Part shown: one piece after another, positions 32,775 through 63,071 of the stretch | Position numbering within the stretch: the stretch's first letter is position 1 | Layout: every line of letters starts with the position of its first letter | NCBI GenBank assembly: GCA_951406725.2 | Contig: OX597821.1 | Coordinates: forward strand, 86,490,001-86,554,000 | Direction of reading: 5' to 3' | DNA from: Octopus vulgaris | Lineage: Eukaryota | Length of the DNA stretch: 64,000 nucleotides | The notes under the pieces: model-generated | What the model saw: only the letters and a program-made list of their open reading frames with translations | The model's database searches: none | Told to the model about the DNA's origin: nothing | Translations under genes and position numbers: made by a program

Positions 32775-32841
<67 letters not shown>

Positions 32842-32948
32842 AGAAAGAAGCAACAAGAATGGATAGGTTTTTAGTACAATCGTTTCATACAGCATATAAA
32901 CGTGTCCCGTACTCATCAGCTAAAATACATATTCTATAGGCTATATAT

Positions 32949-33074
32949 AAGTAATGTAGATAATTAAGTAACATAAACAGATTTCCAAAGTTCATTAAAG
33001 TTCTTTAAAGTTCTTTAAAGAACTTTAATGAACTTTGGAAATCTGTTTATGTTACTTAATTATCTACATTACTT
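32949..33074. repeat. near-perfect ~126-bp palindrome
   Basis: aagtaatgtagataattaagtaac... pairs with ...gttacttaattatctacattactt. Confidence 0.85.
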
Positions 33075-33121
33075 CATGAGTATAGCCTCAACCACTAGGA
33101 TGTCTAGAGAACTCACATGTA

Positions 33122-33211
33122 TTTTAGCTGATGAGTACGGGACACGTTTATATGCTGTAATTTTGCAACTTTTAATAAAGCCTGTCCTTGTATGAAACGA
33201 TTGTACTAAAA
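33122..33211 (+). ncRNA. minimal type I hammerhead ribozyme-like motif (inverted shorter copy at ~32869-32925)
   Basis: stem I ttttag/ctaaaa, CTGATGA, stem II gtacgggaca/tgtccttgtat, GAAAC-gatt-GTA. Confidence 0.6.
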
Positions 33212-33353
33212 ACCTATCCATTCTTGTTGCTTCTTTCTCGCTTATAATCACCCCACATTACTGTATTGTTAAAACAGTATAGTTTTTTTTGGTGCATCTA
33301 AGTTAGGTACCATATTCAAGTAAATTCATTTAAATTAACTTGAATCTTTATTG

Positions 33354-36129: not shown

Positions 36130-37170
36130 GAAAATAGTAATGCAATACGAAAGTATTGCTTTCCAGTAAAGGATAGCCCGTAAGTGTAAAATTATATATA
36201 TAAAGTAAATAAATGGTACGACGAAGCACCGATATTTACTGGAAAATAGCGATTGTAATAAATACGACGCTAATGTATAGCTTCACTGCATATGTACTAG
36301 TAAAGATGCGTGTGTGCAACACACATGAAAAAAATTGTCTTACCTCTAGGAAGAACATCTGAAAAATGAAAAACCTAGAAACGGATAATGCAGTACCGGT
36401 TTCAGACTCTTCAAATACGTTTGCCAACGTAGATTTGATTTGTCATCATCAGCCGCATATACCTCGACAACATTTCAAATGTTGCCACATCTATGCTAGT
36501 ACACTCATCTGAACGCCAAAACGTTAACAGATGATGACAAATCAAATCTACGTTGGCAAACGTATTTGAAGAGTCTGAAACCGGTACCGCATTATCGGTT
36601 TCTAGGTTTTTCATTTTTCAGATGTTCTTTCTAGAGGTAAGACAATTTTTTTCATGTTTGTTACACACACTCTATTTGATTTGTCATCATCAGCCGCATA
36701 TACCTCGACAACATTTCAAATGTTGCCACATCTATTTACTTTATATGTATAATTTTACCCTTACGGGCTATCCTTTACTGGAAAGCAATACTCTCGTATT
36801 GCATTACTATTTTCATTGAAACTTCTTCACTGTTCTCCTTCTGTTTAACGTTTTGGCGTTCAGACGAGTGTACTGGCATAGATGTGGCAACATTTGAAAT
36901 GTTGTCGAGGTATATGCGGCTGATGATGACAAATCAAATCTATGTTGGCAAACGTATTTGAAGAGTCTGAAACCGGTACTGCATTATCCGTTTCTAGGGT
37001 TTTCATTTTTCAGATGTTCTTCCTAGAGGTAAGACAATTTTTTCATGTTTGTTGCACACACGCATCTTTACTAGTACATACGCAGTGAAGCTATACATTA
37101 GCGTTGTATTTATTACGATCGCTATTTTCCAGTAAATATCGGTGCTTCGTTGTACCATTTATTTACTTTA
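36127..37170. repeat. scrambled inverted/direct repeat cluster between (TA)n tracts
   Basis: ~36200-36530 recurs reverse-complemented at ~36845-37170 and partly at ~36530-36670; ~36127-36210 recurs inverted at ~36733-36817. Confidence 0.85.
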
Positions 37171-39729: not shown

Positions 39730-40168
39730 ATTGTTTTTATTTTCAGTTATGAAAATTATTTATTAAGTCGCACTTGGAAGAACATTTTGAACTCAGATAG
39801 TCAGTGAGTAAATGTAGTTTTTTTTTTAATGTCTGGAAAAACAGCGGAAAATAGTGTTTCATCCACTGTTGACAGATGTTCTTAGTGATTCCCATTAGTG
39901 AACGGTTAGGCAAAAAATAATCCTTAGAGTATGAACACCATTATTCATAATGAACTGCTTAGCTATAAATTCGAAATTGTGCTCTTTCTTCGACTGCAGT
40001 CCCCAAAAACTTTAGAAAAACGAAAAGAAAATCATTAAAGTATTATTTTAATATGGATTCCTTCAAATTAAAACATATAAAGATAATACCAAGGCTTGAA
40101 AAAGAATTATACATGTCTTCTCATGAACACATACATGCACGCACACGCACACACACACACTCTCTCTT

Positions 40169-41540: not shown

Positions 41541-41573
41541 ATTTTTAACCATGGCGGGCGTAATGTCTTCCGT
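41541..41573 (-). CDS. last coding micro-exon HGRHYARHG-stop (33 nt)
   Basis: ttttgtttctatctttgCAG / GTGAGT; TAA in phase 1, 4 nt before the donor. Confidence 0.68.
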
Positions 41574-44500
41574 CTGCAAAGATAGAAACAAAATGGCATT
41601 TTATGTCACTGTAATGATCAGTATCAATGTATGAGCGGTGGTTTTTTTGCTTTCAGTTTATTTCCCTGACCATGGATGTTCTGCTCACACCCCATTTTGA
41701 TCCGTGGGCTTTCTGATCGTCTGCTTAGGACTTTATTTCACCATCTTGTTCTTCTTGCTCAAGATCATTTTAAGACATTAAATTATTAGACTAAAGCATT
41801 TGTTTCCTTAATTGTTGCTATGTCGGATTCATACTAAGTTTTTTGATTTTTTATCTTTATACTGATTCCTTTTTAAGTTTCTTGTATTGAGACATAGGGT
41901 TTGTTATTTTAAATTCTGTAAGGTGAGCATTTGGAAAAAGACTTTTTTAGTGGATTAATTCATGATATTTCGTATTAGTTCCAGTGAAAATATTTATATT
42001 TACTGTATAATACATCATTATATTCGTAGTTAAATATTAATTGGTGACCCCCATCGGTCATGACACTGACCATGGGTTTGCACCTAGAGAGTTACCCTCT
42101 GAGGCACAAGTCTGGGCAAGGTTGTTTTATGGAAGACCAGCAGTCGCCCATGCATACCGGCCTCCCCTCTCCACATCACCGATGTTGTCCAAGGGAAAGG
42201 CAAGGGCCGATACAGCTTGGCACCTGTGACGTCGCAACTCATTTCTACAGCTGAGTGAACTGAAGCAACGTGAAATAAAGTGTCTTGCTCAAGAACACAA
42301 CACGCAGCCCGGTCCGGGATTCGAGCTCACAACCTCACGATCGTAAGCTCGACGCTCTAACCACTGAGCCACGCGCCTTCACACGGTGATAGATTACAAA
42401 TAAGCTATCTTCATTATACTAAATTATACTTTATGAATACATTCATTTAATTTATCAATTAATGGTAATAATAATAATGATAATAATATATGAATAATTT
42501 TACTTAATGACATATTGCAATAAAAAACATTTATTTTCAAGCGCGTATTTCTGGGGGTGGGGCTTAATAGCTAATTTATTTATAAATGTTTAAACTTTTA
42601 CTTACAGTTTTTTCCTCCGATAAACTAAGTAATTTAGTATTTGTTTTAGAAATTATTTATGTATTTATGATTAAGTAGATTACAACAATTATATATTTTT
42701 GAATAATTGTAAATATGTGAATTAATTGTAATACAAACTATTCTTAATAATTTTAATAAATTTTTTATGTACTTTATAGCTTGTATTCATACAGCAACAC
42801 TTAAATTTTGTTACATCTGAAAGCGATAAAATTTATAATCTCTTTATCTAAGAAATAATATAGGTAATATTTACCATAGATCCGATTTTCAAATTTCGAA
42901 CGTACAATTTTTTTTTAAGTACTAAAAACTGAGCAGGAGATATTCTATTTAAAATATTTTGGATTATGTCAAATAACCTAATATGATTACAGTAGATAGT
43001 TACTCCTTGAGATCAAATTTCGCCGATGTTAGTGCTGGATTTCGTCCTTCCGGAATGGATAAGGCAACTGTACCATTCATGTACTGAGGTCGATTCAATA
43101 AACTTTTCTCTCTCGTAAAAAAATAATTGAATTTATACCAATTTTAGAGATTAACTTAATGCAACCACGCATTAACTCTTCGCAGATAAAACATAATTCT
43201 AGATTGTTATACTTACGACGTCTATGCCAGCGCTTCCTATAGTGTCCAGCTGTATATTATAAAACAAAGTGAAACATCTTTAGGAGAAAATTATTACTTT
43301 TCGTATTTTATTTTCATTTGATTCTGGGAGATGGAAATAAATTATAAGATTTGATCAACTAATAATTTTGTAGATGAAATTTTGTGAGAAGAGTCGATTT
43401 GAAAGAATTTTAAATATTGAACTATAAGTACGGAAACTGGAAGCCAGTACTTAAACAACTAAACTTATTTTTTCGATTTCATTCCAAAATTCAATTAATC
43501 TTTTAATTAATCAAATGTATTCTACTTGCCATTCATTAATAATTTTGAAACGAACTTCAAACAGGTGAAAATATAATACAAAAATTACTTTTAAAACGGT
43601 TGGACATACATTACTTTGTTTGAGATCATTTGGATTTTATCAAGTAATCGACGTAGAAAAATTATGACTACGAAATAGTGTGTGACATTTGACGCCACAG
43701 CCGCCGAAATAATGTAGGACATCTTGCAATGAGTAATAACAGGATGCTCAATTGTCACACTGCAAAGTCATCAACATATGTTGTAAATGTAAAATAGGGC
43801 CGTTAAAGCAGTAGAAAGATTTATATATCTAATTTAATTGTATGGACCTACTAGCGCTCTATTGTATTATTACCTGCTGAGTGATCTACACGTTTTAAGA
43901 GTGTCGTTAGGAGATTGACATGTGTTGTGAATAACGAGAATCAAAGAGCGGTGGACAAAGTAACTTGTAGTATTTCGAAACCCACCAAAGATGGCTTTGC
44001 GTTTCCTTCTTACAGATTCCACGAAATATAAATATACCAAGTATTGTGACTAATTGATAAGCAATACATTTCCCAAAAAAACAATGCGTGGCTTTGTGTT
44101 TTTTTTTTTTTGTTTTTTTTTTCTAGTTTCAGCTCAGAGCTGCGGCCATGCTGATGCACCGCCGTTTTGTGCTACACTGTTATTGCGACGAACCTCGTCT
44201 AATATGTGGCACTTGGTGAAGAATGGAGTTTGATACAGCTACTCTCATTTGCACCTCTTGCCGTGAGGTAGGTTCATCTGGGACTCTTGACAGGAAGATG
44301 TCCAGCTTTGATTTAAAAACGGCTACATCTACTTGGTGCAAGTTCCTCAGACTCTTTGGGAGAATATTAAAAAGCTGTGGGCCCTTGAAACCCAGGCTGT
44401 TGCAGAAGCTGGTCCTGAAGCGTGATGGCATTGCTGGGATCTTTGGCACTATGCAGTGTCGTCCCGTTCTAGCATTGGTGTAGCTTACAATGCCAAAATT

Positions 44501-47500
44501 TGGCCCAATTCCTTCCGGGATCTTCCAGACATGTTAGAAATAAATTTTGAGAAAGGGTGAGAGATTTAGGGGCAATTTTCCGTTTGATTTAATCAACCTA
44601 GTGCTAGATCGGATCTAGTGTTATCAAACCCAGAAGATGAAAGGCATACAAGAAAATTTTTTTAAAAATTGAATTTATACCAATTTTAGAGATTAATTTA
44701 ATGCAACCACACATTAACTCATCGCAGATAAAATATAATTCTAGATTGTTATACTTACGACGTCTATGCCAGCGCCTCCTATAGTGTCCAGCTGTATATT
44801 ATAAAACAAAGTGAAATATCTTTAGAAGAAAATAATTACTTTTCATATTTTATTTTCATTTGATTCTGGGAGATGGAAATAAATTATAAGATTTGATCAA
44901 CTGATATTTTTGTAGATGAAATTTTGTGAGAAGAGTCGGTTTGAAAGAATTTTAAATATTGAACTATAAGTACGGAAACTGGAAGTCAGTACTTAAAAAA
45001 TTAAAATTATTTCTTCAATTTCATTCCAAAATTCAATTAACCTTTTAATTAATCAAATGTATTCTACTTGCCATCCATTCATCATTTTGAAACAAATTTC
45101 AATCAGGTGAAAATATGATACAAAAATTACTTTTAAAACGGTTGGACATACATTACTTTGTTTGAGATCATTTGGATTTTATCAAGTAATCGATGTAGAA
45201 AAACTATGATTACGAAATAGTGTGTGACATTTGACGCCACAGCCACCGAAATAATGTAGGACATCTTGCAATGAGTAATAACAGGATTCTCAATTCTCAA
45301 ACTGTAAAGTCATCAACATATGTTGTAAATGTAAAATAGGGCCGTAAAAGCAGTAGAAAGATTTATATATTTAACTTAATTGTATGGACCTACTAGCGCT
45401 CTATTGTATTATTACCTGCTGAGTGATCTACACGTTTTAAGAGTGTCGTTAGGAGATTGATATGTGTTGTGAATAACGAGAATCAAAGAGCAGTGGACAA
45501 AGTAACTTGTAGTATTTCGAAACCCACCAAAGATGGCTTTGCGTTTCCTTCTTACAGATTCCACGAAATATAAACATACCAAGTATTGTGACTAATTGAT
45601 AAGCAATACATTTCCCAAAAAACAATGCGTGGCTTTGTGCTTATGTTAGAAATAAATTTTGGAAAAGGATGAGAGATTTAGGGGCAATTTTCCGTTTGAT
45701 TTAATCAACCTAGTGCTAGATCGGATCTAGTGTTATCAAACCCAGAAGATTAAAGGCATACAAGAACATTTTTTTTTAATTGAATTTATACCAATTTTAG
45801 AGATTAATTTAATGCAACCACACATTAACTCATCGCAGATAAAATATAATTCTAGATTGTTATACTTACGACGTCTCTGCCAGCGCCTCCTATAGTGTCC
45901 AGCTGTATATTATAAAACAAAGTGAAATATCTTTAGAAGAAAATAATTACTTTTCATATTTTATTTTCATTTGATTCTGGGAGATGGAAATAAATCATAA
46001 GATTTAATCAACTGATAATTTTGTAGATGAAATTTTGTGAGAAGAGTCGGTTTGAAAGAATTTTAAATATTGAACTATAAGTACGGAAACTGGAAGCCAG
46101 TACTTAAACAACTAAACTTATTTTTTCGATTCCATTCCAAAATTCAATTAATCTTTTAATTATTCAAATGTATTCTATTTGCCATTTATTAATAATTTTG
46201 AAACGAATTTCAAACAGGTGAAAATATGATACAAAAATTACTTTTAAAACATTTGGATATACATTACTTTGTTTGAGATCATTTGGATTTTATCAAATAA
46301 TCGATGTAGAAAAACTATGATTACGAAATAGTGTGTGACATTTGACGCCACAGCCACCGAAATAATGTAGGACATCTTGCAATGAGTAATAACAGGATTC
46401 TCAATTCTCAAACTGTAAAGTCATCAACATATGTTGTAAATGTAAAATAGGGCCGTAAAAGCAGTAGAAAGATTTATATATTTAACTTAATTGTATGGAC
46501 CTACTAGCGCTCTATTGTATTATTACCTGCTGAGTGATCTACACGTTTTAAGAGTGTCGTTAGGAGATTGACATGTGTTGTGAATAACGAGAATCAAAGA
46601 GCAGTAGACAAAGTAACTTGTAGTATTTCGAAACCCACCAAAGATGGCTTTGCGTTTCCTTCTTACAGATTCCACGAAATATATAAACATACCAAGTATT
46701 GTGACTAATTGATAAGCAATACATTTCCCAAAAAACAATGCGTGGCTTTGTGCTTATGTTAGAAATAAATTTTGGAAAAGGATGAGAGATTTAGGGGCAA
46801 TTTTCCGTTTGATTTAATCAACCTAGTGCTAGATCGGTTCTAGTGTTATCAAACCCAGAAGATGATGGGCATACATGAAAATTTTTTTTAAAATTGAATT
46901 TATATCAATTTTAGAGATTAATTTAATGCAACCACACATTAACTCATCGCAGATAAAATATAATTCTAGATCGGTATACTTACGACGTCTCTGCCAGCGC
47001 CTCCTATAGTGTCCAGCTGTATATTATAAAACAAAGTGAAATATCTTTAGAGGAAAATAATTACTTTTCATATTTTATTTTCATTTGATTCTGGGAGACG
47101 GAAATAAATTATAAGATTTGATCAACTGATATTTTTATAGATGAAATTTTGTGAGAAGAGTCGGTTTGAAAGGATGTTAAATATTGAACTTAAGGTACGG
47201 AAACTGGAAGCCAGTACTTAAACAACTAAACTTATTTTTTCGATTCCATTCCAAAACTCAATTAATCTTTTAATTATTCAAATGTATCCTATTTGGTATC
47301 CGTTCATCATTTTGAAACAAATTTCAAACAGGTGAAACTAAAATATAAAAATTACTTTTAAAACAGTTGGAAATACATTACTTTGTTTGGGATCATTTGG
47401 ATTTTATCAAGTAATCGACATAGAAAAACTATGATTACGAAATAGTGCATGACATTTGACGCCACAGATTAATTTAATGGAACCGCACATTAAGTCTTCG

Positions 47501-50500
47501 CAGATAAATTATAATTCTAGTTTGGTATACTTATGAGATTTATTCCAGGGTTTCCTATAGTGATCTGTACATTATAAAACAAAGTGAAATATATTTAGAA
47601 GAAAATAATTACTTGTGGTATATTATTTTCATTTGATTCTGGGAGATGGAAATAAATGTGTGGCTTTGTGATTATGTTAGAAATAAATTTTGAAAAAGGG
47701 TGAGAGATTTAGGGGCAATTTTACGTTTGATTTAATTGATCTAGTGCTAGATCGGTTCTAATGTTATCAAACCCAGAAGATGAAAGGCATACAAGAAACC
47801 AGTGAAATTTGAAGACAAAGTTAATGGCATAAGGAAGCAATGTTGAATATGTAACCAGTTTTCTGTTGCTATGCCACTCTGCCGTGCAAATGTTAGTAAT
47901 AGAATTAATTTCTTCTTATATGAGCACAAAAGTGCTGTATTAAATGGGGGGAAAAAGTAGCATAGTGTGCTTAACCTATCCCCCAAAACCGTCAAAAACG
48001 CATGTGAAATGACTTCAATCATCCCGCTGTGTTTGGGTTTATGATATTTTATCTCTAAGTCTGGAGGTGGGACTTTACAAGTATGGTGAGATCAATGCAG
48101 GTGATGATCAGCTTTAACATGTGTGTATCTACAAGTGCCGGAAAATATGCTTAGGAAGAGAACTGCAGAAGGTTGCCAGCAGAAGAAATGATTGAGAGAA
48201 GTTCATCTAGTGGAATGTGGTACGCAACTAAGTAATTTATAGCAATGAAGGCAGTTATCGCATTAATAGAAACTGCAGAGAAAGGGACACTGCATATTTG
48301 TAGCTTATTGGCTGTTGTAAAGGAAATATTGTTGACACTGCTTTACAGTGGATATTTCTAGGCCGCTTTTTCCTTCTTAAGAAATAGCTTTAGAAATTTG
48401 GCAAGTAGTAAAGCTTCGTTAATCAACTTCAGCTTTCTGGTGGTCCACTATAGATAGATTTCTTCATTAAGTTACAGCCTTTTTATCATTTTGCTACAAA
48501 ATAGCTGCTGCGATATACCGTCTCATACTTCTTAATTGCCTTCAATTTACATTGAGGTGTTATTTTTATACGACAGAAATCATAATTATTTTATAAAATA
48601 CTAGCAGTATCGCCCGGCGTTGCTCGGGTTTGTAAGGGAAATAACTATATAAGCATTTTTAGAGAGTTACTTCTCTTATATAATAGCAAAAAAATGCATT
48701 AAAAATGGGCAAAAATGATGGTAAACTTTTTTTAAATCGTAGACTCATCGTAGACGCGCGCTAATACCCAGAAGGGCTCGATATGAATCACGACTATAAG
48801 ATACCCGCTTTTGGTTAAACTGCACCGCAAAATGTGGGAGTAGTTAGGAATCTAAATCGTAGGAGACAGACACTCACACAACTTCACTTTTATATATAAA
48901 GATATTGAAGCATTCGGTCTACAACTCATAGATAATATCATCGTGGTTAAAATGCTATTTTATATGTGTATAATTACGATGTCCATGTAAGTGTTGGCCA
49001 TGGTGTCCATCTGCATAAAACAAAATTTTATTAAGAGTAAGAGTTACCAATCAGGACATTATTCTCAAGAATCTGTCTAAAGTTTGACATTCAAAAAAAA
49101 AACCATCTTTTCATATAACAATTTTGTATAGGGAGAGTCAGTTGGAAAGAAATTTGATAGCTGAATTTAAAATACGAACACTCATGGACACTTAATATTG
49201 AAACAAATAAAATTTTGTTTTCTTCGATTTCATTCCGAAATTCAGTTGTGAGATCTTTAAAATTTTCAAATTTATTTCACATGCATTCACGATTTCGGTT
49301 TTAAGACAAAGCTTCTTTTTCTAAATTTCAAGTTTCAAACGAGAAAGAAATTTAAAAAAATCTGTGATTTGCTCACCCCAAAAAGGCATAAATAAACAGA
49401 AATTATTCTGTTTAGAATATCTTGAAATATGTAAAATAAGCACAAAGAAAATTGATATCATGACATATTTTACATCACAACCTAAGAATCGGTGTCCTTA
49501 CTATCGCGACTATTAATTGGATAGTTTATTCTCATAGCGCTAGAGACAGATATTATCTTGTAGAAGTAAAATGGCACAAGTAATAGTTGTATAAAATACA
49601 TAGAAATAGATCAAACTTAAATGTATAGATTTATAGACTCTCTATAGCGTAATTAGAAGCCTGTCTTCTGATTAAGTGATATATAAATGCTTAAAAACGA
49701 GCTATTGCCTTAAAAATGGTTCTGAATTATTAAAATCAGATATTGGGGGACAAAATAATTTACAGTTCTTCGAAACCCTAAAAAGGCTGATTTAGCCTTT
49801 CATTCTCAAGAAATTAATAAAATAAGTACCAACCGAGAATTAAAGTCGACACGATAGACAATACCTTTCCTCAAAAATGTGAGGCCTTCTGCCTACATCA
49901 GAAATAATTTGGGGAAATAATGGTCGATTTGGTTGAGGTGAGGTGGAAGGCGAGATTATAATCGAATCAACTTAGAACTAGATTGATTTTAATATTATCG
50001 AACCCTAAAGGGGCGAGATGGCAGAATCGTTAGCACGCCGAACAAAATGATTAGCGGCATTTCGTCCGTCTTTACATTCTGAGTTCAAATTCCGTCGAGG
50101 TCGACTTTACTTTTCATCCTTTCGAGGACGATGAAAATAGTACCAGATAAAAAAAAGTACCAGTTGGATACTGGGGTTGATGTAATCAACTTACCCCTCT
50201 CCCAAAATTGCTGACCTTGTGTTAAAATTTGAAATTAATATTATCGAATCCCGAAGGTGAACCACAAACCTGAGCCCCTCGGGATTTGAAGTCCAGAAAG
50301 TTCAAAAACGTAAGGAAATATTGAAGAGAATGTAATTTGTTGCGATGTCAATATTCTATACCGAGGGTATCGAGACATAAGTGAAATTATCTCATATTCC
50401 GCAGCACATAATAGATGTCTTAGGTTAAGATATTTTATTTGTGAGCCAAGTGAGATCAGTGTTGATGATGTTCAGTTTGAACATCTGTAGATCAACTGTG

Positions 50501-53500
50501 GAGGTGCAGTGGCCCAATGGTTAGGACAGTGGACTCACGGTCATAGGATCGCGGTTTCGATTCCCAGACCGGGTGTTGTGAGTGTTTATTGAGCGAAAAC
50601 ACCTAAAAGCTCCACGAGGCTCCGGCAGGGGATGGTGGTGATCCCTGCTGTACTCTTTCACCACAACTTTCTCTCACTCTTACTTCCTGTTTCTGTTGTA
50701 CCTGTATTTCAAAGGGCCGGCCTTGTCACTCTCTGTGTCACACTGAATATCCCCGAGAACTACGTTAAGGGTGCACGTGTCTGTGGAGTGCTCAGCTACT
50801 TACACGTTAATTTCACGAGCAGGCTGTTCCGTTGATTCGGATCAACCGGAACCCTCGTCGTCGTAACCGACGGAGTGCTTCCACAGATCAACTACGGAAA
50901 GAGAATTACAAAATCTTAAGAGCTGAAAGCTAGACGCTGAGACTGGTTTGTCTGGGAGTTGGTAGCATGCAACAAGCTAATTCAGAGCAAAAAAGGTCGT
51001 CATCATATCATAGAATATATAGAGAAATGACACTGCACATCTGATGTACTCCGCATCAAGTTTGATAAAAAAAAAAGTATTATGTAGACTTTGGCTAGTC
51101 GTAAAGCTTTGACAATCAACCCCAGCTTTCTGGTTGCCCAATCATTTTACAAACGAGTTATTGTGTTTGTGTACAAGGCTTTTATCATGCGACATTTTGT
51201 TAATATGTAGCTGCGATGTACATCCCCGTACTTTTTCCCTTTCGGTTTACTGAGATGCCATGATATAACAGGAAACAATGATTTCATGAGATTTTGAGGT
51301 AATCAGTTTATAATACATAAATAGTGTTCGATCATGTTATTTAGTTTCATCGGTTTGGTTAATTTTAATAAAAGTACAGGAATTAGACAACTGTTTGAAA
51401 ATATTTCAAGAAATCTTCTTTCATTCCAAGGTGATAAATCCTTAGCTTCTTGAATCCGGTTTACGTTGGAACAATACGTCTGACTAATTTTTAACAATGG
51501 AGATAGTTTCTTTAGCGTTTTGCTTTCGTAATACATTGATTTGTATTCTACCTTTTCGACTATACTCTTTACTCTTTTACTTGTTTCAGTCATTTGACTG
51601 CGGCCATGCTGGAGCACCGCCTTTAATCGAGCAACTCGACCCCGGGACTTATTCTTTGTAAGCCCAGTACTTATTCTATCGGTCTCTTTTGCCGAACCGC
51701 TAAGTGACGGAGACGTAAACACACCAGCATCAGTTGTCAAGCAATGCTAGGGGTACACAAATGCACACACATATATATATATACATATATACAACAGGCT
51801 TCTTTCAGTTTCCGTCAACCAAATCCACTCACAAGGCATATAGCAGAAGACACTTGCCCAAGATGCCACGCAGTGGGACTGAACCCAGAACCATGTGGTT
51901 GGTTAGCAAGCTACTTACCACACAGCCACTCCTACGCCTTGTAAGTTCTTGTTTTTTATGTAGTTTATAATTTAGTGTTTCAAATTTTATCACTAATTTT
52001 TAATTCCCTTTGTTTTCTGGACATGATATCATCGTTACACATCAAAATTACAGGAATTTGTAACTTTTTTTCTTATAAATAATATTTCATCGTTCAATTT
52101 ATAGCTTAAACTTGACTAAAGGTAATTAGGATTTAACTTTTCCATTTTGATATTCTAGAGGTATTTTGGTTTCTGCACAAAACTTTGACGTTTATGCTCA
52201 GATTTCGATCATATCTCAACCAACCGTGGCGATATTATCTCTTTACTATTGACGTGTATTTAATTTAATATATATGTTGGCAGTGTTCGATAGTTCAACG
52301 AAGTCTAAATTATAGTAATTCATAGCTTGAGTTTCCTTTCCTTTTATGTTTTATTGTATTGTATTGACATACTGCATAAGCATGCAGTGCGAGTAGTTCC
52401 TTATCGAAATTAATTTGGCTTATTTATACATCTATGCTAAAGTAATATATAATATTTATATACGCAAAACTATAATCATAACAGTATTTTGTCGCTCAAA
52501 AGTTTCTTATGCTGCCTTTATGAAAGCAATAATTATATGCGTTCAATTGAGCTGAAGTCTGCATTCACTGTGTGTGTGTGTATGTGCATGTATGTATGTA
52601 TGTGTGTTTGTGTGTATGTGTGTGTGCGCGTGTGTGTGTAAAATTTATTACCTACTGAAATATTTTGTTGCAGTTTAATAGATAGTTCTATAGAGGCGAA
52701 GAATTGGACAAAATATCGTCCAGTAATTATATATCAACTTTTCTGCTTTCCGATCAAATTCCGCTGACGTCAATTTTGGTTCTCAACTTTCCCGAATGGA
52801 TAAAATATAGTTCCAGCCAAGTATATGCTATACCCTTCCGTATACAAAAATTAGCCTTTTAATAGTATTAGATATCAATACATAGAAATATCACATATTG
52901 GATCCTGTAGTAAAAATGTTATTTTAGATGCACTTACGATGTCCAGGCCAGTGTTTGTCAGGATATCCAGGCCAGTGTTTGTCGGGATATCCAGGCCAGT
53001 GTTTGCCATGATGTCCATCTGTATATTATAAAACAAAGCAAAATATATTTAGAAGAGAATAATTCCCTGTCAGGACATTATTTTTAGTTTATTCTGGATT
53101 AGAAGACTAAAGTATGAGATACATTTAGCAATTGTCACATGCCGATTTTTTTTAGTTCAATTGTAAGAAATGAATATACAGAACTTAAAATGCGAAAAGA
53201 AAGCAAAAGTGAATATTTAATCAACTGAAATTATTTATTTTATTAATTTCATTTTGAATTTCAATTTTATTTTATATTCTCTAGTGACTTCCTTTTAAAA
53301 CGATACATTCATATTCTGAGTTTCGAATTTCAAACGGACGAAAAAAAAATTATAAAAAAAAGATTACTCAAAATAAATAACCAGAAAAAACTTAACAGTT
53401 CAAATATAAGAGGTACTTTAATTATATCAGTGGTTGGTTATAATGAAGTTAAATATTAATATTTAACGTATATATAAATTGAAGATGTAAGATGATGGCT

Positions 53501-55489
53501 TTAGAAATATCGACAAATTTTAATCGAGTTTAATTTTATAATTATTCTCAACTTGTTTTTTGTGTTTCGAGTTATTAAATGTACCGAACATACTTAAATA
53601 ACATGAAATACGTAAAATATTTATTGCTAAAGGATTAATGAACTTATTCATAGATTTATGTTAAAGGGTATGTAATATTAAGATACTTACGTAACAATAT
53701 TTCTATAGAATCGTAACCGTTTCTTTTTTTCAGCTCAGCTATTTCATGTTATGGTATGAAAGCAATTATATGCGTTCAAACTTGAAACTAACATTTACAC
53801 TTACCAATATCTGTATATATTAGGTTTATCACCCATTGAGGGGTTTTATTGTACCTTAATACAAATAGCTATTAAGACAGCGTTATTGCTGAATCGTTGG
53901 AACGTCATATAAAATCCTTTACAGAATATAAGTAGCTATACCTACTTTGTCCTAAGTTGAAATTCTTCTATGTCAATGTTAGCTTTCTTTCTTTCTTCCG
54001 GAGGGAATAAGTTAAAATGCTAGCCGAGTATTGATTTCGATTCAATATACTTTATTCTCTCATCGAAAATATCTAGTCTTGTACAAATGTCAGAAGTTAA
54101 CATAGAAAGTTACATATTAACTTTTCACGATTAAAATATGATTCTAGGTTTGTTTTACTTACGATCTCCATGCCAGTCAACGTCATGATCTTCACCTATA
54201 TATTAGAAAACAAAGCGGAAATATCTTTAGAAAAACAATATTAACTATCAAGATATTATTTTCAGTTTAAAATACTAGTTTCATTTAGCTAATATTTTCA
54301 TAAAACAAATTTTATCTGGTAAGAGTTAATTGAAGACATGAATATATAAAATTTAAAATACAAACATTAATCGAGAACATATTTAAACAACTGAAGTTAT
54401 TGATTTTTCCGTTCCATTCCGAATTTCAGCAACAATCTTTAAAACTTTTTCGACGGAATTCGATTTCACATTCTCTTGTGAATTTGATTTAAGTCAAAAC
54501 ACATGTTCAAAATTTAAATATTCAAGCGGACCATAAATGGAGAAAAATAAATAAGAATTTTTTTAATATTTAAAATAAATAAATAACCAGAAAATATTCC
54601 TTTTAGAATATTTTGGATGATGTCAAATAATCAATACAGAACTAGTTTTTATCACAACCAACGAAATAATGTAGATGTGGCGGCGTGCTATCAAGATTAT
54701 TAATTTCAATTTTATTTTTTTAAATTTTTGACTGAATTCGATTTTATATTCTCTAGTGACTTCCTTTTAAAACGATACATTCATATTCTGAGTTTCGAAT
54801 TTCAAACGGACGAAAAAAATTATAAAAAAAGTTTACTCAAAATAAATAACCAGAAAAAAATTAACAGTTCAACCATAAGAGGTACTTTAATTATATCAGT
54901 GGTTGGTTATAATGAATTTAAATATTAATAATTAACGTATATATAAATTGAAGATGTAAGATGATGGCTTTAGAAATATCGACAAATTTTAATCGAGTTT
55001 AATTTTATAATTATTCTCAACTTGCTCATAATGTTAAATTATCTTGTAGATGTAAAATAATACATTTAGAATTGCAGAAAAGACAGATTTAATTTGATTA
55101 TACGGGCTTGCAGGAGCTCCATAGTGCATTCAGTAATACGTTAAATCATATATGTGCAAAGGTCAGCTTGTGGGTTGTCGGTTGCTTTGAATAAGCAGAA
55201 TCACAGGATAGTAAACGAGATAATTAATGGTATTTTGAGACCGGACACTATTTTCTTGAGTTTATTTCCTGTCTTTTATCTTGTATTATTTTGTTAATAT
55301 ATCTACGAAATATATATACTCATAGGCGCAGGAGTGGCTGTGTGGTAAGTAGCTTGCTAACCAACCACATGGTTCCGGGTTCAGTCCAACTGCGTGGCAT
55401 CTTGGGCAAGTGTCTTCTGCTATAGCCCCGGGCCGACCAATACCTTGTGAGTGGATTTGGTAGACGGAAACTGAAAGAAGCCTGTCGTA

Positions 55490-55571
<82 letters not shown>

Positions 55572-57513
55572 TGTGTCTGTGTTTGTCCCCCTAGCATTGC
55601 TTGACAACCGATGCTGTTCGGCAAAAGAGACCGATAGAATAAGTACTGGGCTTACAAAGAATAAGTCCCGGGGTCGATTTGTTCAACTAAAGGCGGTGCT
55701 CCAGCATGGCCGCAGTCAAATGACTGAAACAAGTAAAAGAGTAGGTACAATTATATAGAGAAAACACTTCGGGACAGCTAATCAAAATCATAAAGAAAAT
55801 GTACTGGAAGACAGTCAAGTGAACAATTTTAGCTTTATTTATTTATTGATAAGATTGAAAGTAGTTGATACATCTTCAGAAATCCTTACACTTTCCATTG
55901 AATGTTATGAAATACCAACGATAAATTCTGAACTTCTTGAACTAATATTCTGTTTCGTTGAAGCCATATATTAGTCTGATTTATTTATTATATTTGAAGG
56001 ACAGCCTCTTCAGCATTATATATTTTCAGTACGCCGAGTTATACTTTACTCTTTCACCAAAGGTTGTAAATTCCTGTCTCTGATCTAGTTCTTTATTTAG
56101 CATTAAGCATGAGGATTTATATATTTACTATTGACGCAAATTTAAGATATGTTGATAGATTTGGAAAGTTTCGACAGGATTTAGCTGTAATTAAATTTCA
56201 TAATTATTCATAGCTTGAGATTTCTTCTATTTTTGCCTTTCTTTTAAGAGTATGTTATCGTACATACTTCATAAACATGCAATACGAAGGAAGCTTTACC
56301 GAAGAGCTATTTGGCTCATTTACACATACTTAATTTAATGATAATCTTTCGATCCAAGGAAAATGGTTCTGCAATTTCTTGCTCAATACTTTATACAGAG
56401 GATTTGCTTATAGTGATCAAATGCTTGTGCTGCACATAAGTTCACTTACTCCATTAAACTGATTTTGCCTTTACAGATGTGCGGTGTGCCACACGTCAAG
56501 TGCCGAAGTGATCGTATACACATACATACTGAAGTATATATCTAATCATTAAATACGGAAAAATATTCGCATAAAACTTTACCAGCTTTTTACAGCTCAG
56601 CTATTTCATATGAAGGTAAGATGACTTTGTGAAAACTATATACGTTCAGACAAAAAACTGAAGTCTGCATGTATGTATATATGTATGTATTTATGTATGC
56701 AATTATACCTGTATATATGTATGTATGAAGTTTATCATCCATTGAAAGATTTTGTTATAGTTTACAGAAGTATTAGGATGGCAAATGATAGGTTAGAATG
56801 ATCGTTAGAGCGTCGGACAAAATACGTTGCAGTAGTAAGCTACAACCTTATAATTTCTGAGATCAAATCCTGCAGATGTCAGATTTAGCTTTCATCCTTT
56901 AAGAGTGGATAAAACAAAGTACCAGTCAAGTGCTGAGATCGATTCAATATACCATACCCGCTTGTCAATAATATGTAGCTCTGTACCAATGTTACAAATC
57001 AATATATAGAGATATAGCATATTAATTTTTCGGTAAAAAGGTTATTTTAAATTTCTATACTTACGAGGCCGTCGCAGACGTCGACCCCAGCTACCGGGGT
57101 GAAGATCTCTAGCTGTATATTATAAAACAAGACGAAATGGATTGAGAACAGTAACTCCGAGTGAGAATTTGTTTTTGTTTTGTTTTTGTCTTTTTTGTTG
57201 CGTTTTGCTGTTGTTTTGTGTGTGTGTGTGTGTGTTTTTTTTTTTTTTTTGGTTTTGTTCTTTCTTTCAAAGTTGAGGAGTAAAATCTGAACTTCACACA
57301 ATTACTCTTTTACTCTTTTACTTGTTTCAGTCATTTGACTGCGGCCATGCTGGAGCACCGCCTTTAGTCGAGCAAATCGACCCCGGGACTTATTCATTGT
57401 AAGCCCAGTACTTATTCTATCGGTGTCTTTTGCCGAACCGCTAAGTGACGGGGACGTAAACACACCAGCATCGGTTGTCAAGCAATGCTAGGGGGACAAA
57501 CACAGACACACAA

Positions 57514-58315: not shown

Positions 58316-60137
58316 TGTGTCTGTGTTTCTCCCCCCAATATTGCTTGACAACCGATGCTGGTGTGTTTACGTCCCCGTCACTTAGCGGTTCGGCAAAAAG
58401 AAACCGATAGAATAAATAGTAGGCTTACAAAGAATAGGTCCTGGGGGTCGATTTGCTCGACTAAAGGAGGTGCTCCAGCATGGCCACAGTCAAATGACTA
58501 AAACAAGTAAAAGAGTAAAAGAGTATAATAACAAGGAACGAAAAATATTCTTCACAGAATACTTTGGATTATGTCAAATAATAGTTGCAGAAGTGAAGTG
58601 TTATATGAAATAACTGAAGAATAGCTACGTGGTATATTCCGTAGGGCGGCGAGCTGGCAGAAACGCTAACACGCCGGGCGAAATGCTTAACGGTATTTCG
58701 TCTGCCGCTGCGTTGTGAGTTCAAATTCCGCCGAGGTCGACTTTGCCTTTCATCATTTCGGAGTCGATAAATTAAGTACCAGTTACGCACTGGGGTCGAT
58801 GTTAGCGACTTAATACCTATGTCTGTCCTGTTTGTCCCCTCTGTGTTTAGCCCCTTGTGGGTAATAAAGAAATAGGTATTTCGCCTTCCGCTACGTTGTG
58901 AGTTCAAATTCGCCGAGGTCGACTTTGCCTTTCATCCTTTCGGAGTCGATAAATTAAGTACCAGTTACGCACTGGGGTCGATGTAATCGACTTCATACCT
59001 ATGTCTGTCCTAGTTTGTCCCCTCTATGTTTAGCCCCTTGTGGGTAGTAAAGAAATAGGTACATTCCTCTTCCCAAGCAGGGAAGAATTTACTATCATAA
59101 ATAGTAGTCTGCCCGCCTAGCTGTTTGGTTGAAGAGAACTAGAAAAAAATAAGAGAAATTACATGTAGTTTATTAATCAGCCGGTCATTGGCCCACAGTA
59201 AGTATTTTATTAAAATAGGATTTGTTAAGTAAAATAATAAACAATAAATAGTTTTAAATTGAAGGGAAGTAACTAAATACTTAACACTAGCGCTAAATGA
59301 CTTGTATGTAACAGTGCGAATGGTAAGGCTCTAAACACCTACTGATAGAGGTGCCCATCGATTGCTACATTTTTGCATAAAAGTGTTGACCCTTGCAGGA
59401 CTGAAAAGTCACATGGATGCTGCTATAAGAGAGCAATCAAGCGATGGTATTCCGCAGAATTGGGTTGCAGTCATCATGTATGCATGTATGTATGTATGCA
59501 TGTATGCATGTATGTATGTATGCATGTATGCATGTATTATGTATGTATGTATGTATGCATGTATGTATGCATGTATGTATGTGTGTATGTATGTGTGTGT
59601 ATGTATGTGTATGTGTGTGTATGTATGTATGTATGCATGTATGTATGCATGTATGTATGTATGTATGCATGTATGCATGTATGTCTGTATGTATGCATGT
59701 ATGCATGTATGCATGTATGCATGTATGTATGTATGTATGCATGTGTGCATGTATGTATGTATGTATGTATGTATGTATGTATGCATGCATGTATGCATGC
59801 ATGTATGTATGTATGTAATGTATGTATGTATGTAATGTATGTATGTATGTATGTATGCATGTATGCATGTATGTATGCATGTATGTATGTATGTATGTAT
59901 GCATGTATGTATGTATGTATATGTGTGCGTTTACGTGTATGCATGCATGTATGTATGTATGTATGTATGTATGTATGCATGTATGTATGCATGCATGTAT
60001 GTATGTATGTATGTATGTATGCATGCATGTATGTATGTATGTATGTATGCATGTATGTATGTATGTGTGTGCGTTTACGTGTATGCATGTATGTATTGTA
60101 TTGTATATATGTATGTGTGTGTGTTTGTGTGTGTATG

Positions 60138-60168
<31 letters not shown>

Positions 60169-62701
60169 GTGTCTGTGTTTCTCCCCCCAATATTGCTTGA
60201 CAACCGATGCTGGTGTGTTTACGTCCCCGTCACTTAGCGGTTCGGCAAAAGAAACCGATAGAATAAATAGTAGGCTTACAAAGAATAGGTCCTGGGGTCG
60301 ATTTGCTCGACTAAAGGAGGTGCTCCAGCATGGCCACAGTCAAATGACTAAAACAAGTAAAAGAGTAAAAGAGTATAATAACAAGGAACGAAAAATATTC
60401 TTCACAGAATACTTTGGATTATGTCAAATAATAGTTGCAGAAGTGAAGTGTTATATGAAATAACTGAAGAATAGCTACGTGGTATATTCCGTAGGGCGGC
60501 GAGCTGGCAGAAACGCTAACACGCCGGGCGAAATGCTTAACGGTATTTCGTCTGCCGCTACGTTGTGAGTTCAAATTCCGCCGAGGTCGACTTTGCCTTT
60601 CATCCTTTCGGAGTCGATAAATTAAGTACCAGTTACGCACTGGGGTCGATGTAATCGACTTCATACCTATGTCTGTCCTAGTTTGTCCTCTCTATGTTTA
60701 GCCCCTTGTGGGTAGTAAAGAAATAGGTACATTCCTCTTCCCAAGCAGGGAAGAATTTACTATCATAAATAGTAGTCTGCCCGCCTAGCTGTTTGGTTGA
60801 AGAGAACTAGAAAAAAATAAGAGAAATTACATGTAGTTTATTAATCAGCCGGTCATTGGCCCACAGTAAGTATTTTATTAAAATAGGATTTGTTAAGTAA
60901 AATAATAAACAATAAATAGTTTAAATTGAAGGGAAGTAACTAAATACTAAACACTAGCGCTAAATGACTTGTATGTAACAGTGCGAATGGTAAGGCTCTA
61001 AACACCTACTGATAGAGGTGCCCATCGATTGCTACATTTTTGCATAAAAGTGTTGACCCTTGCAGGACTGAAAAGTCACATGGATGCTGCTATAAGAGAG
61101 CAATCAAGCGATGGTATTCCGCAGAATTGGGTTGCAGTCATCATGTATGCATGTATGTATGTATGCATGTATGCATGTATGTATGTATGCATGTATGAAT
61201 GTATGTATGTATGTATGTATGTATGCATGTATGTATGCATGTATGTATGTGTGTATGTATGTGTGTATGTATGTGTATGTGTGTGTGTATGTATGTATGT
61301 ATGCATGTATGTATGCATGTATGTATGTATGCATGTATGCATGTATGTCTGTATGTATGCATGTATGCATGCATGTATGCATGTATGCATGCATGTATGT
61401 ATGTATGTATGTATGTATGTATGTATGTATGCATGCATGTATGTATGTATGTATGTATGTATGCATGCATGTATGTATGTATGTATGTATGCATGTATGT
61501 ATGTATGTGTGTGCGTTTACGTGTATGCATGTATGTATTGTATTGTATATATGTATGTGTGTATGTATGTATGTATGTATGTGTATGTATGTGTGTATGT
61601 ATGTATGTGTGTATGTATGTATGTATGTATGTGTGTATGTATGTGTGTATGTATGTATGTATGTATGTATGTGTATGTGTGTGTATGTATGTATGTATGT
61701 ATGTATGTATGTATGCATGTATGTATGTATGTGTGTGCGTTTACGTGTATGCATGTATGTATTGTATTGTATATATGTATGTGTGTATGTATGTATGTAT
61801 GTATGTATGTATGTATGTATGTATGTGTGTATGTATGTGTGTATGTATGTATGTATGTGTGTATGTATGTATGTATGTATGTATGTATGTATGTATGTAT
61901 GTATGTATGTATGTATGTATGTGTGTATGTATGTGTGTATGTATGTATGTATGTATGTATGTATGTATGTATGTATGTATGTATGTATGTATGTATGTAT
62001 GTATGTGTGTATGTATGTATGCATGTATGTATGTATCTCCAAGTTTATGCATAGATAGAAGCAATAAATTCGCTATTACACAGAGAACGACTTTTACGAT
62101 CATACTTCAACACGCACTCACTCACACACGCATGCGCTCGCAATCATTCACATACACACACACGCAAACACACACACACAAACACACATATACACACACA
62201 CATACACACACAAGCACACACACACAAACACACATACACACACACACATACACACACAAGCACACACGCAAACACACACACACACGCACGCAAATACACA
62301 CACACACATACAAACACACAGGCAAACACAGACATACAAACGCACATACATACACACACAAACACACACGCAAACACACACACACGCACGCAAATACACA
62401 CACACACACACAAACACACAGGCAAACACAGACATACAAACGCACACACATACACACACAAACACACACGCAAACACACACACACGCACGCAAATACACA
62501 CACACACACATACAAACACACAGGCAAACACAGACATACAAACGCACACACATACACACACAAACACACACGCAAACACACAAACACACACGCAAATACA
62601 CACACACACATACAAACACACAGGCAAGCACAGACATACAAACGCACACAAACACACACAAACACACACAAACACAAATACACACAAACACACACACACA
62701 A

Positions 62702-62985: not shown

Positions 62986-63071
62986 CACCTATAATTCTGC
63001 GCATCTGTTAATTGATTCTTAATTTGCATACTTACATTTTCTCCGCGAGGGTTCTCGTACGCGTTTTTCGT
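41545..63071 (-). CDS. Micro-exon gene encoding a His/Arg/Trp/Gly-rich repeat peptide (5'-incomplete); exons in transcript order 63071-63036, 57112-57065, 54195-54163, 53018-52938, 49010-48978, 47016-46984, 45902-45870, 44791-44759, 43249-43217, 41573-41541 (stop at 41547-41545)
   Basis: Each segment has a T-rich ...YAG acceptor and a GTAAGT/GTAATT/GTGAGT donor on the - strand, and every length (33, 36, 48, 81 nt) is a multiple of 3. The phase-1 join is open for 130 aa to a TAA; phase 2 has stops; phase 0 is also open but compositionally incoherent. Confidence 0.72.
42045..42383 (-). mobile_element. tRNA-derived SINE
   Basis: reverse head gtgaaggcgcgtggctcagtggttagagc...ctcgaatccc. Confidence 0.7.
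43217..43249 (-). CDS. micro-exon PGHYRKRWHRR (33 nt)
   Basis: ataCAG / GTAAGT in the ~1.1 kb tandem unit. Confidence 0.72.
44099..44530 (-). mobile_element. 5'-truncated LINE (CR1/L2-group-like ORF2 3' end) inserted in one tandem unit
   Basis: poly-T at left (poly-A on the - strand); ORF NSLGFKGPQLFNILP...FKSKLDIFLSRVPDEP; sister units show the empty site gctttgtgcttatgttag. Confidence 0.85.
44759..44791 (-). CDS. micro-exon PGHYRRRWHRR (33 nt)
   Basis: ataCAG / GTAAGT in the ~1.1 kb tandem unit. Confidence 0.72.
45870..45902 (-). CDS. micro-exon PGHYRRRWQRR (33 nt)
   Basis: ataCAG / GTAAGT in the ~1.1 kb tandem unit. Confidence 0.72.
46984..47016 (-). CDS. micro-exon PGHYRRRWQRR (33 nt)
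   Basis: ataCAG / GTAAGT in the ~1.1 kb tandem unit. Confidence 0.72.
47535..47564 (-). pseudogene. decayed micro-exon (HHYRKPWNKS) with dead donor
   Basis: acceptor intact (tgtaCAG), but donor is ATAAGT instead of GTAAGT; 30 nt; lies in a partly deleted repeat unit. Confidence 0.6.
48601..48902 (-). mobile_element. non-autonomous Helitron
   Basis: A|TC...hairpin...CTAG|T on the - strand; same end as 5256 and 29924. Confidence 0.75.
48978..49010 (-). CDS. micro-exon HGHHGQHLHGH (33 nt)
   Basis: ttttgttttatgCAG / GTAATT. Confidence 0.7.
50498..50884 (+). mobile_element. SINE family C with 9-bp TSD
   Basis: TSD agatcaact at 50489-50497 and 50885-50893. Confidence 0.88.
51563..51938 (-). mobile_element. 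SINE family A
   Basis: homology to other copies. Confidence 0.85.
52938..53018 (-). CDS. micro-exon HGHHGKHWPGYPDKHWPGYPDKHWPGH (81 nt, internal 24-nt repeats)
   Basis: ttgttttataatataCAG / GTAAGT; 33 nt + 2x24 nt. Confidence 0.75.
53268..55025. repeat. near-identical ~285-bp direct duplication (~53268-53555 / ~54742-55025)
   Basis: attctctagtgacttcc...attattctcaacttg occurs twice. Confidence 0.88.
54163..54195 (-). CDS. micro-exon REDHDVDWHGD (33 nt)
   Basis: ttgttttctaatataTAG / GTAAGT. Confidence 0.72.
55325..55743 (+). mobile_element. SINE family A
   Basis: homology to other copies. Confidence 0.85.
57065..57112 (-). CDS. micro-exon SRDLHPGSWGRRLRRP (48 nt)
   Basis: ttgttttataatataCAG / GTAAGT. 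Confidence 0.72.
57303..57743 (-). mobile_element. SINE family A
   Basis: homology to other copies. Confidence 0.85.
58063..58522 (+). mobile_element. SINE family A after (AAT)n
   Basis: homology to other copies. Confidence 0.85.
58315..62035. repeat. near-identical tandem duplication (~1.7-1.85 kb) ending in (TATG)n tracts
   Basis: 58329 matches 60181 and ~59467 matches ~61135; includes SINE A tail, SINE B and an RTE-like 3' fragment (LAGLKSHM). Confidence 0.9.
62122..62981. repeat. compound (CA)-rich satellite
   Basis: higher-order ~60-bp periodicity of CA/CAAA/CGCA units. Confidence 0.95.
63036..63071 (-). CDS. micro-exon xEKRVREPSRRK (36 nt)
   Basis: ttgttttatcatatcCAG acceptor (similar to the other units), GTAAGT donor. 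Confidence 0.6.

Follow-up and report, generated by a model that had tools for sequence, protein, structure and literature searches.

A tandem array of 33-nucleotide exon units as the probable youngest tract of an expressed, exon-duplicating gene in Octopus vulgaris

The window analysed here, a whole stretch of 64,000 nucleotides (nt) from Octopus vulgaris (contig OX597821.1, positions 86,490,001 to 86,554,000 of the forward strand), carries on its minus strand an array of four similar units with one 33-nt exon each. Within a gene built of short symmetric exons, the array represents the youngest part; the gene is probably lineage-specific, expressed and enlarged by repeated copying in tandem of one such exon along with its introns. 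Positions are counted within the window, and unit offsets against a 1113-nt period. The array is composed as follows:

43124-44098, minus strand: unit U1, offsets 135-1110, exon at 43217-43249
44099-44530, minus strand: 432-nt retroelement-like 3' fragment inserted between U2 and U1
44531-45642, minus strand: unit U2, whole, exon at 44759-44791
45643-46755, minus strand: unit U3, whole (full 1113-nt period), exon at 45870-45902
46756-47467, minus strand: unit U4, truncated, offsets 1-711, exon at 46984-47016
47466-47797, minus strand: unit U5, fifth and internally deleted, dead exon copy at 47535-47564

The four units U1-U4 were spaced by 1542, 1111 and 1114 nt from start to start, the first of these distances being accounted for by the insertion, and about 400 nt were absent from the fourth unit. 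Pairwise identity across a common stretch of 576 nt ranged from 91.7 to 95.8% (all six pairs, five of them above 93%) and reached 95.8-97.2% across 974 nt in the long units U1-U3. In every unit one minus-strand exon of 33 nt was bounded by AG and GT, which agrees with the initial annotation of four highly similar units with intact splice sites. Its further statement that the exons differ at two positions, both amino-acid changing, also proved correct, as exactly 2 of the 33 sites varied, causing R/K and Q/H replacements in the frame called phase 1 below; the U3 exon was identical to the U4 exon. A tandem-repeat scan (TRF) inside the array found only the T tract of the 44099-44530 insertion.

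Three features were absent from the initial annotation: the dead fifth unit, the insertion and a second open reading frame. The U5 remnant at 47466-47657 (192 nt, offsets 159-353) showed 87.0-88.5% identity to U1-U4. Its exon copy was 30 nt long, with the AG kept and the donor GT changed to AT, the nearest GT giving a length of 34 nt. At position 47544 within this dead copy, sequencing runs X3 and X5 carried G, not T, which is closer to the live module and represents either an allele or an assembly error. The insertion, presumably the 3' end of a long interspersed nuclear element, ended in a poly(A)-type tail (its T-tract end), and the comparison of filled and empty sites revealed no target duplication and a loss of 3 nt. 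Its 117-codon open frame gave no Pfam match.

Four sequencing runs were compared with the array, three of them guessed to be RNA and one being DNA from a second organism (organism B); they come from a list of 24 runs, for none of which RNA is recorded as the source. In run X3, one of those guessed to be RNA, a joint was found between 44791 and 46984 with the ends CT..AC. The loose end at 46984, which fits U3 and U4 equally, was followed in X3 by the start of a repeat exon, the one at 43217 was followed by the first 10 nt of the exon starting at 41573, and the one at 41541 continued at 39988-40009, behind an AG. These joints and loose ends fell on the predicted splice sites of three exon types and placed the start of the last exon at 40009. 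Array exons were thus spliced at their predicted ends to one another and to two downstream exons in one RNA-like run. Transcripts that never include these exons had been named beforehand as a refutation; the X3 joints do include them and support the view of the units as real spliced exons in duplicated exon-plus-intron copies. The joint 44791|46984 resembled an exon skip, yet with U3 and U4 sharing the same exon sequence, regular splicing from U3 to U2 would look no different; no unambiguous skip was found among the joints listed, 215 joints and 1902 loose ends lying outside this listing. Inclusion of all four array exons is probably the norm. The summed X3 contig depth (about 8,700 : 9,800 : 20,100 for U1 : U2 : U3/U4) would fit four-exon inclusion, and the array bins of X5 averaged 46 against 50-57 for single-copy DNA; neither value was used because the depth of contigs is no measure of copy number or of the rank of parts. 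In runs X16 and X19 no exon joints or cover appeared among the rows listed, which is not evidence on tissue.

The same run bears on the reading of the array as an assembly expansion or a non-coding satellite with chance exons. Tandem arrays are prone to mis-assembly and no protein database match was obtained, but the units differ from one another by 3-8% and have a unit-specific insertion and deletions. Unspliced X3 contigs at 45118-45460, 45493-45750 and 46113-46244 showed no differences to the U2-specific, U2/U3-junction and U3-specific stretches, respectively. Since these intronic contigs match unit-specific letters, an expansion of the array in assembly, a check proposed in the initial annotation, is unlikely; together with the spliced joints they largely refute this alternative as a whole, leaving it extremely improbable.

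The 12 informative sites supported all three possible four-unit trees (5, 5 and 2 sites), and the unit-specific letters among U1-U3 were clustered (29 like neighbours, 53 sites, p = 0.002). Organism B, diverged by about 0.7% in unique DNA (15 of 2102 nt), yielded a 470-nt contig with 8 differences to U3, seven of which were U1 or U2 letters (chance about 6e-10), while two U3-specific features were retained. A second contig had three differences to U3, all being U2 letters, and a third carried a U1-type exon letter within U2-type flanks. Units here and in organism B are therefore mosaics of the kind left by unequal crossing-over and conversion, which would be the mechanism behind the pattern. 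The exchange between units by crossing-over suggested in the initial annotation is supported as a pattern by the three trees and the mosaic contigs, and the turnover seen in this pattern concerns the sequence of the units and not their number. The exons (2 of 33 sites variable) did not differ in variability from the introns (61 of 543; Fisher p = 0.56). In copies of so recent an origin, intact splice sites are therefore no proof of function by themselves, the supporting evidence being the X3 joints.

A scan of the minus strand between 39.5 and 64 kb for AG..GT intervals of 18-120 nt gave 22 candidates, of which 11 were multiples of three. Nine of these 11 were open in phase 1, compared with 1/9, 0/10 and 0/8 in three control scans. 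The exon set from 63071 to 41541 comprised 10 exons including the stop-bearing one, with lengths of 36, 48, 33, 81, 33, 33, 33, 33, 33 and 33 nt from upstream to downstream, all 10 being multiples of three; the count is a lower bound for the gene, whose start lies beyond the window edge. Outside the array the following exons were assigned:

63036-63071, minus strand: most upstream candidate exon, 36 nt, symmetric, predicted from the splice-site scan, flank z = 4.1/4.1
57065-57112, minus strand: candidate exon, 48 nt, predicted older paralogous module with the array acceptor motif, z = 6.6/5.1
54163-54195, minus strand: candidate exon, 33 nt, predicted older paralogous module, flanks 74-76% like the units, z = 8.5/7.9
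52938-53018, minus strand: candidate exon, 81 nt, predicted, acceptor flank 79-84% like the units
48978-49010, minus strand: candidate exon, 33 nt, rich in His and Gly, directly preceding the array, from the scan and the downstream flank
41541-41573, minus strand: exon, 33 nt, with the phase-1 stop 4 nt ahead of the donor, open in phase 0
39741-40009, minus strand: last exon, 3' untranslated region in phase 1, 16 more codons in phase 0 with the stop ending at 39959

The lower end of the last exon was guessed from an AATAAA at 39764 and 39741. One acceptor motif occurred eight times in the window, every time at an exon of the gene or at the dead copy. The flanks of the four older exons resembled those of U2 on both sides (z 3.2-12.1), those of exon 48978-49010 downstream only (z 6.3 vs. 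1.5) and those of exon 41541-41573 on neither side (1.6). Flank similarity was graded from about 75% in the old copies to 99% in the recent ones. Because exon flanks resemble the U2 flanks, most of the gene descends from a single module that was duplicated both early and more recently. Exon 54163-54195 was acidic and His-rich in phase 1. Exon 52938-53018 consisted of a 33-nt module and two internal 24-nt repeats (TRF period 24, 3.3 copies), which are a second route of module gain in the same gene.

Two reading frames, phase 1 and phase 0, run through the exons without a premature stop. Phase 1, with one 11-residue His/Arg/Trp module per array exon, is probably the frame of the gene. The G+C fraction at synonymous third codon positions (GC3s) was 27/83 (0.33) in phase 1 and 57/83 (0.69) in phase 0, with an intron GC of 0.28. 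The phase-0 value would be improbable both at this local intron GC (p = 3e-14) and at a GC of 0.4 (p = 2e-7). Upon synonymous shuffling the other frame was open in 42-55% of cases if phase 1 is real and in 0.05-7.5% if phase 0 is real. The initial annotation had read the modules as PGHYRRRWxRR, and this frame is favoured by GC3s and the shuffles; a second frame is nevertheless also open, and both phase 1 and secretion of the product are unproven because the start codon lies beyond the window.

It is quite unlikely that the same array is instead read in phase 0. In that case a product of 148 visible residues with an isoelectric point (pI) of 4.05 would be built of acidic 11-residue modules (LDTIGGAGxDV-type) and would work like the amphipathic 11-mer repeat proteins. 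All 10 exons can be read through in phase 0, which ends conventionally with a stop in the last exon; variation is lowest at its middle codon positions, and its module replacements are more conservative (mean BLOSUM 0.12 vs. -1.05), although 11% of neutral simulations produce such a gap. Against it stand its high GC3s in a locus of low intron GC, the small chance that the other frame would be open and the lack of a homologue of the one exon searched. The homologue searches used as query the 81-nt exon as it reads in the genome rather than the spliced product, and blank results are weak because only this exon was searched. With the 57-residue phase-0 frame no match was obtained at E<=10 among 3051 candidates (proteins of 101-2000 residues), and the Atlas search gave no usable match for either frame. 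The use of both frames, by which the exons would encode two chains, one strongly basic and the other strongly acidic, is hardly credible.

Read in phase 1, the visible product has 129 residues, with 31 Arg (24%), 25 His, 17 Gly, 12 Pro, 9 Trp and 7 Tyr, no Cys or Thr, three Ser and almost no Ala. It contains 37 Lys+Arg and 10 Asp+Glu, which gives a net charge of about +27 and a pI of 11.9. The 12 dibasic sites could serve to cut the modules apart. The product ends with Gly before the stop; a terminal Gly could be an amidation signal, a weak indication with Gly making up 13% of residues. A neuropeptide precursor was considered and given little weight, the dibasic cuts leaving pieces of 2-4 residues. 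The 33-residue phase-1 frame was searched against 1.84 billion representatives, and its eight matches (E 8e-7 to 8e-4) were rejected as unrelated short tandem repeats in singleton clusters. Pfam gave no family for either of two queries. Four short peptide motifs were found in no paper in full text, nor in the supplements of PMC7693380 and of PMC10138644, and no description of the gene was found in the literature, subscription papers and bioRxiv supplements lying outside this search.

Based on composition, a secreted cationic host-defence peptide is the single most likely function, a tentative assignment. The lactoferricin B core RRWQWR and histatin-5 are described in part of PMC6017362 as Trp/Arg-rich and His-rich extended antimicrobial peptides. 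The modules would be similarly extended, Cys-free and cationic, with a matching composition if phase 1 is right; the likeness is one of composition only, with one Trp per module here. A nucleic-acid-binding protein rich in Arg and His, akin to protamines or transition proteins and lengthened by exon duplication, is very unlikely. The Arg content and the net charge, with a single acidic upstream module, would suit it, but the searched 81-nt exon gave no homologue, and nine Trp and many introns are atypical of protamines.

Second after the host-defence peptide, and somewhat unlikely, ranks a coacervating structural protein, in which the His, Arg, Trp and Tyr residues of the phase-1 product would act as 'stickers' that form condensates with polyanions or chitin, as part of a secretion that is hard or adhesive, in the manner of the squid histidine-rich beak proteins (HBPs). 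Its repetitive, Cys-free chain rich in His, Tyr and Trp speaks for it, as does the report, in the available portion of PMC11931252, that HBPs coacervate through His and Tyr repeats. Like HBP-1 to HBP-3, the product would be cephalopod-type, His/Gly-rich, repetitive and probably disordered. Spider silk genes are likewise composed of exon+intron repeats, as mentioned in part of PMC2576457. According to an excerpt of PMC9068888, HBPs were not found in Octopus bimaculoides. Membership in the beak family itself was rejected: HBPs carry GHGxY/H and GAGFA motifs, more than 50% of Gly+Ala+His and a pI of about 6 (PMC11931252, same portion), whereas the product here had none of these motifs, 33% of Gly+Ala+His and a far higher pI.

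The explanation preferred here, of the array as the youngest tract of a gene grown by exon duplication, would run as follows. The gene has 10 exons or more, each with a length divisible by three and with flanks graded from old to recent, and in one run its array exons are joined at predicted ends to one another and on to two downstream exons. Tracts would be swapped among units by unequal crossing-over or gene conversion, modules being born by duplication and dying by deletion and donor loss, as in U5. Exons read in phase 1 would give a Cys-free, disordered and strongly basic product. This product, if secreted, may bind anionic microbial surfaces and metals in host defence, every extra exon adding about five positive charges and one Trp.

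Several points weigh against it. The RNA status of X3 is a guess, and the run may derive from the assembled animal itself. The five upstream exons had no RNA support, four of them lying outside the stretch compared with the runs, and for exon 48978-49010 no X3 joint was present among those listed. Clustering of the informative sites was not significant when the four units were compared (p = 0.24), and no sign of purifying selection was detected on the young exons or among the older modules (pN ~ pS). Besides the conservative replacements and the conventional stop of phase 0, the GC3 argument becomes neutral if the true GC3 of the gene is 0.5. No start codon or signal peptide was found within the window: a scan for signal peptides gave 23 candidates, 20 of them in a microsatellite and three intronic without support. 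Finally, no homologue of the 81-nt exon, searched in either frame, supports any function.

The closest precedent in architecture is the exon-2 repeat of the polymorphic mucins (SmPoMuc) of Schistosoma mansoni, a likeness drawn from its description and not from a sequence comparison. There, a 27-bp exon lies in units of about 1 kb that are more than 93% identical and evolve in concert, a design that the same source also names for SOWgp and for the genes of spider silk (PMC2576457, consulted part). In both systems a tiny symmetric exon with its introns, here in units of 1111-1114 nt, provides one peptide repeat, and units exchange sequence, here presumably by unequal crossing-over and conversion. 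In contrast to SmPoMuc, the exon here has 33 nt instead of 27, there are four live units and one dead instead of up to 20, microsatellite spacers are missing and the product is basic and His/Arg-rich, not a mucin (three Ser, no Thr). SmPoMuc is additionally marked by a gene family and by repeat-number polymorphism. Copying an exon with its introns is thus an already known way of lengthening a repetitive protein; for the gene itself, no database match was obtained with the one exon searched.

Taking 36 nt as the cut-off for a micro-exon, 8 of the 10 visible exons qualified, amounting to 267 of 396 nt, i.e., 67% of the visible coding length. The schistosome micro-exon genes (MEGs), to which the locus had been likened initially, are characterized in the accessible part of PMC4015677 by micro-exons forming up to 75% of coding sequence, symmetric exons, skipping and a signal peptide. 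The resemblance held for the micro-exon share and for symmetry (10/10), and the product here is similarly a small protein without known domains. Unlike in MEGs, adjacent exons are near-identical duplicates and the host, to judge from its octopus-like repeats, appears free-living. With the one skip-like joint ambiguous and the N-terminus beyond the window, the gene was not classed as a MEG; SmPoMuc is the closer precedent.

The initial annotation had also proposed frame-preserving skipping of the symmetric exons, giving isoform ladders as in MEGs, and a unit number that may vary between individuals. A variation system of this kind, with combinatorial skipping, is unlikely. Symmetry and the micro-exon share are in its favour, the dead fifth unit and the mosaic haplotypes indicate turnover, and the joint 44791|46984 might reflect skipping. 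That joint has the equally good U3-to-U2 reading given above, however, and X3 carries the U2-, U3- and U2/U3-junction-specific pieces just as the window does. Skipping would moreover alter the length of the product and hardly its sequence because the modules are near-identical. Even more doubtful is an independent MEG/SmPoMuc-like system in a free-living animal, with an orphan, secreted host-defence peptide tuned in charge and length by allelic unit number and frame-preserving skipping. If skipping or unit-number variation were true, the micro-exon variation strategy would reach beyond parasitic flatworms and the gene would define a new cationic peptide family.

Under the preferred explanation, the history of one exon module can be followed at the locus, including its birth (recent copies, 95-99%), its exchange, an insertion and its death by loss of the donor, and as a single expressed orphan gene it would be a compact case of repetitive-protein growth. 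Annotation can miss such a gene, its 33-nt exons lying within a masked 'satellite' and the searched exon having no protein match.

Further observations concern the surroundings of the exons. On the minus strand at 39965-40009, the phase-1 frame continues without a stop through the first 15 codons of the last exon; skipping of the stop exon 41541-41573, if it happened, would create an alternative C-terminus. An Rfam search of 39-50 kb returned no families. The segments 53263-53555 and 54735-55024, upstream of two older exons, were 97-100% identical while the exon-proximal flanks were only about 77% alike, which suggests recent conversion between old modules. A two-copy intron duplication (58327-59474 and 60179-61141, 98-99%) around an ATGT microsatellite holds no candidate exon and is either a recent duplication or an assembly artefact. 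Outside the gene, a short ATG-started C/A-rich stretch with a strong GTAAGT donor at its end was noticed by eye at 26920-26957 on the plus strand and may be an exon that belongs to a different gene. Local duplications, inverted and direct, also seen by eye at about 36200-37150 and at 32840-33230, the second folding back around 33010, are possibly assembly artefacts.

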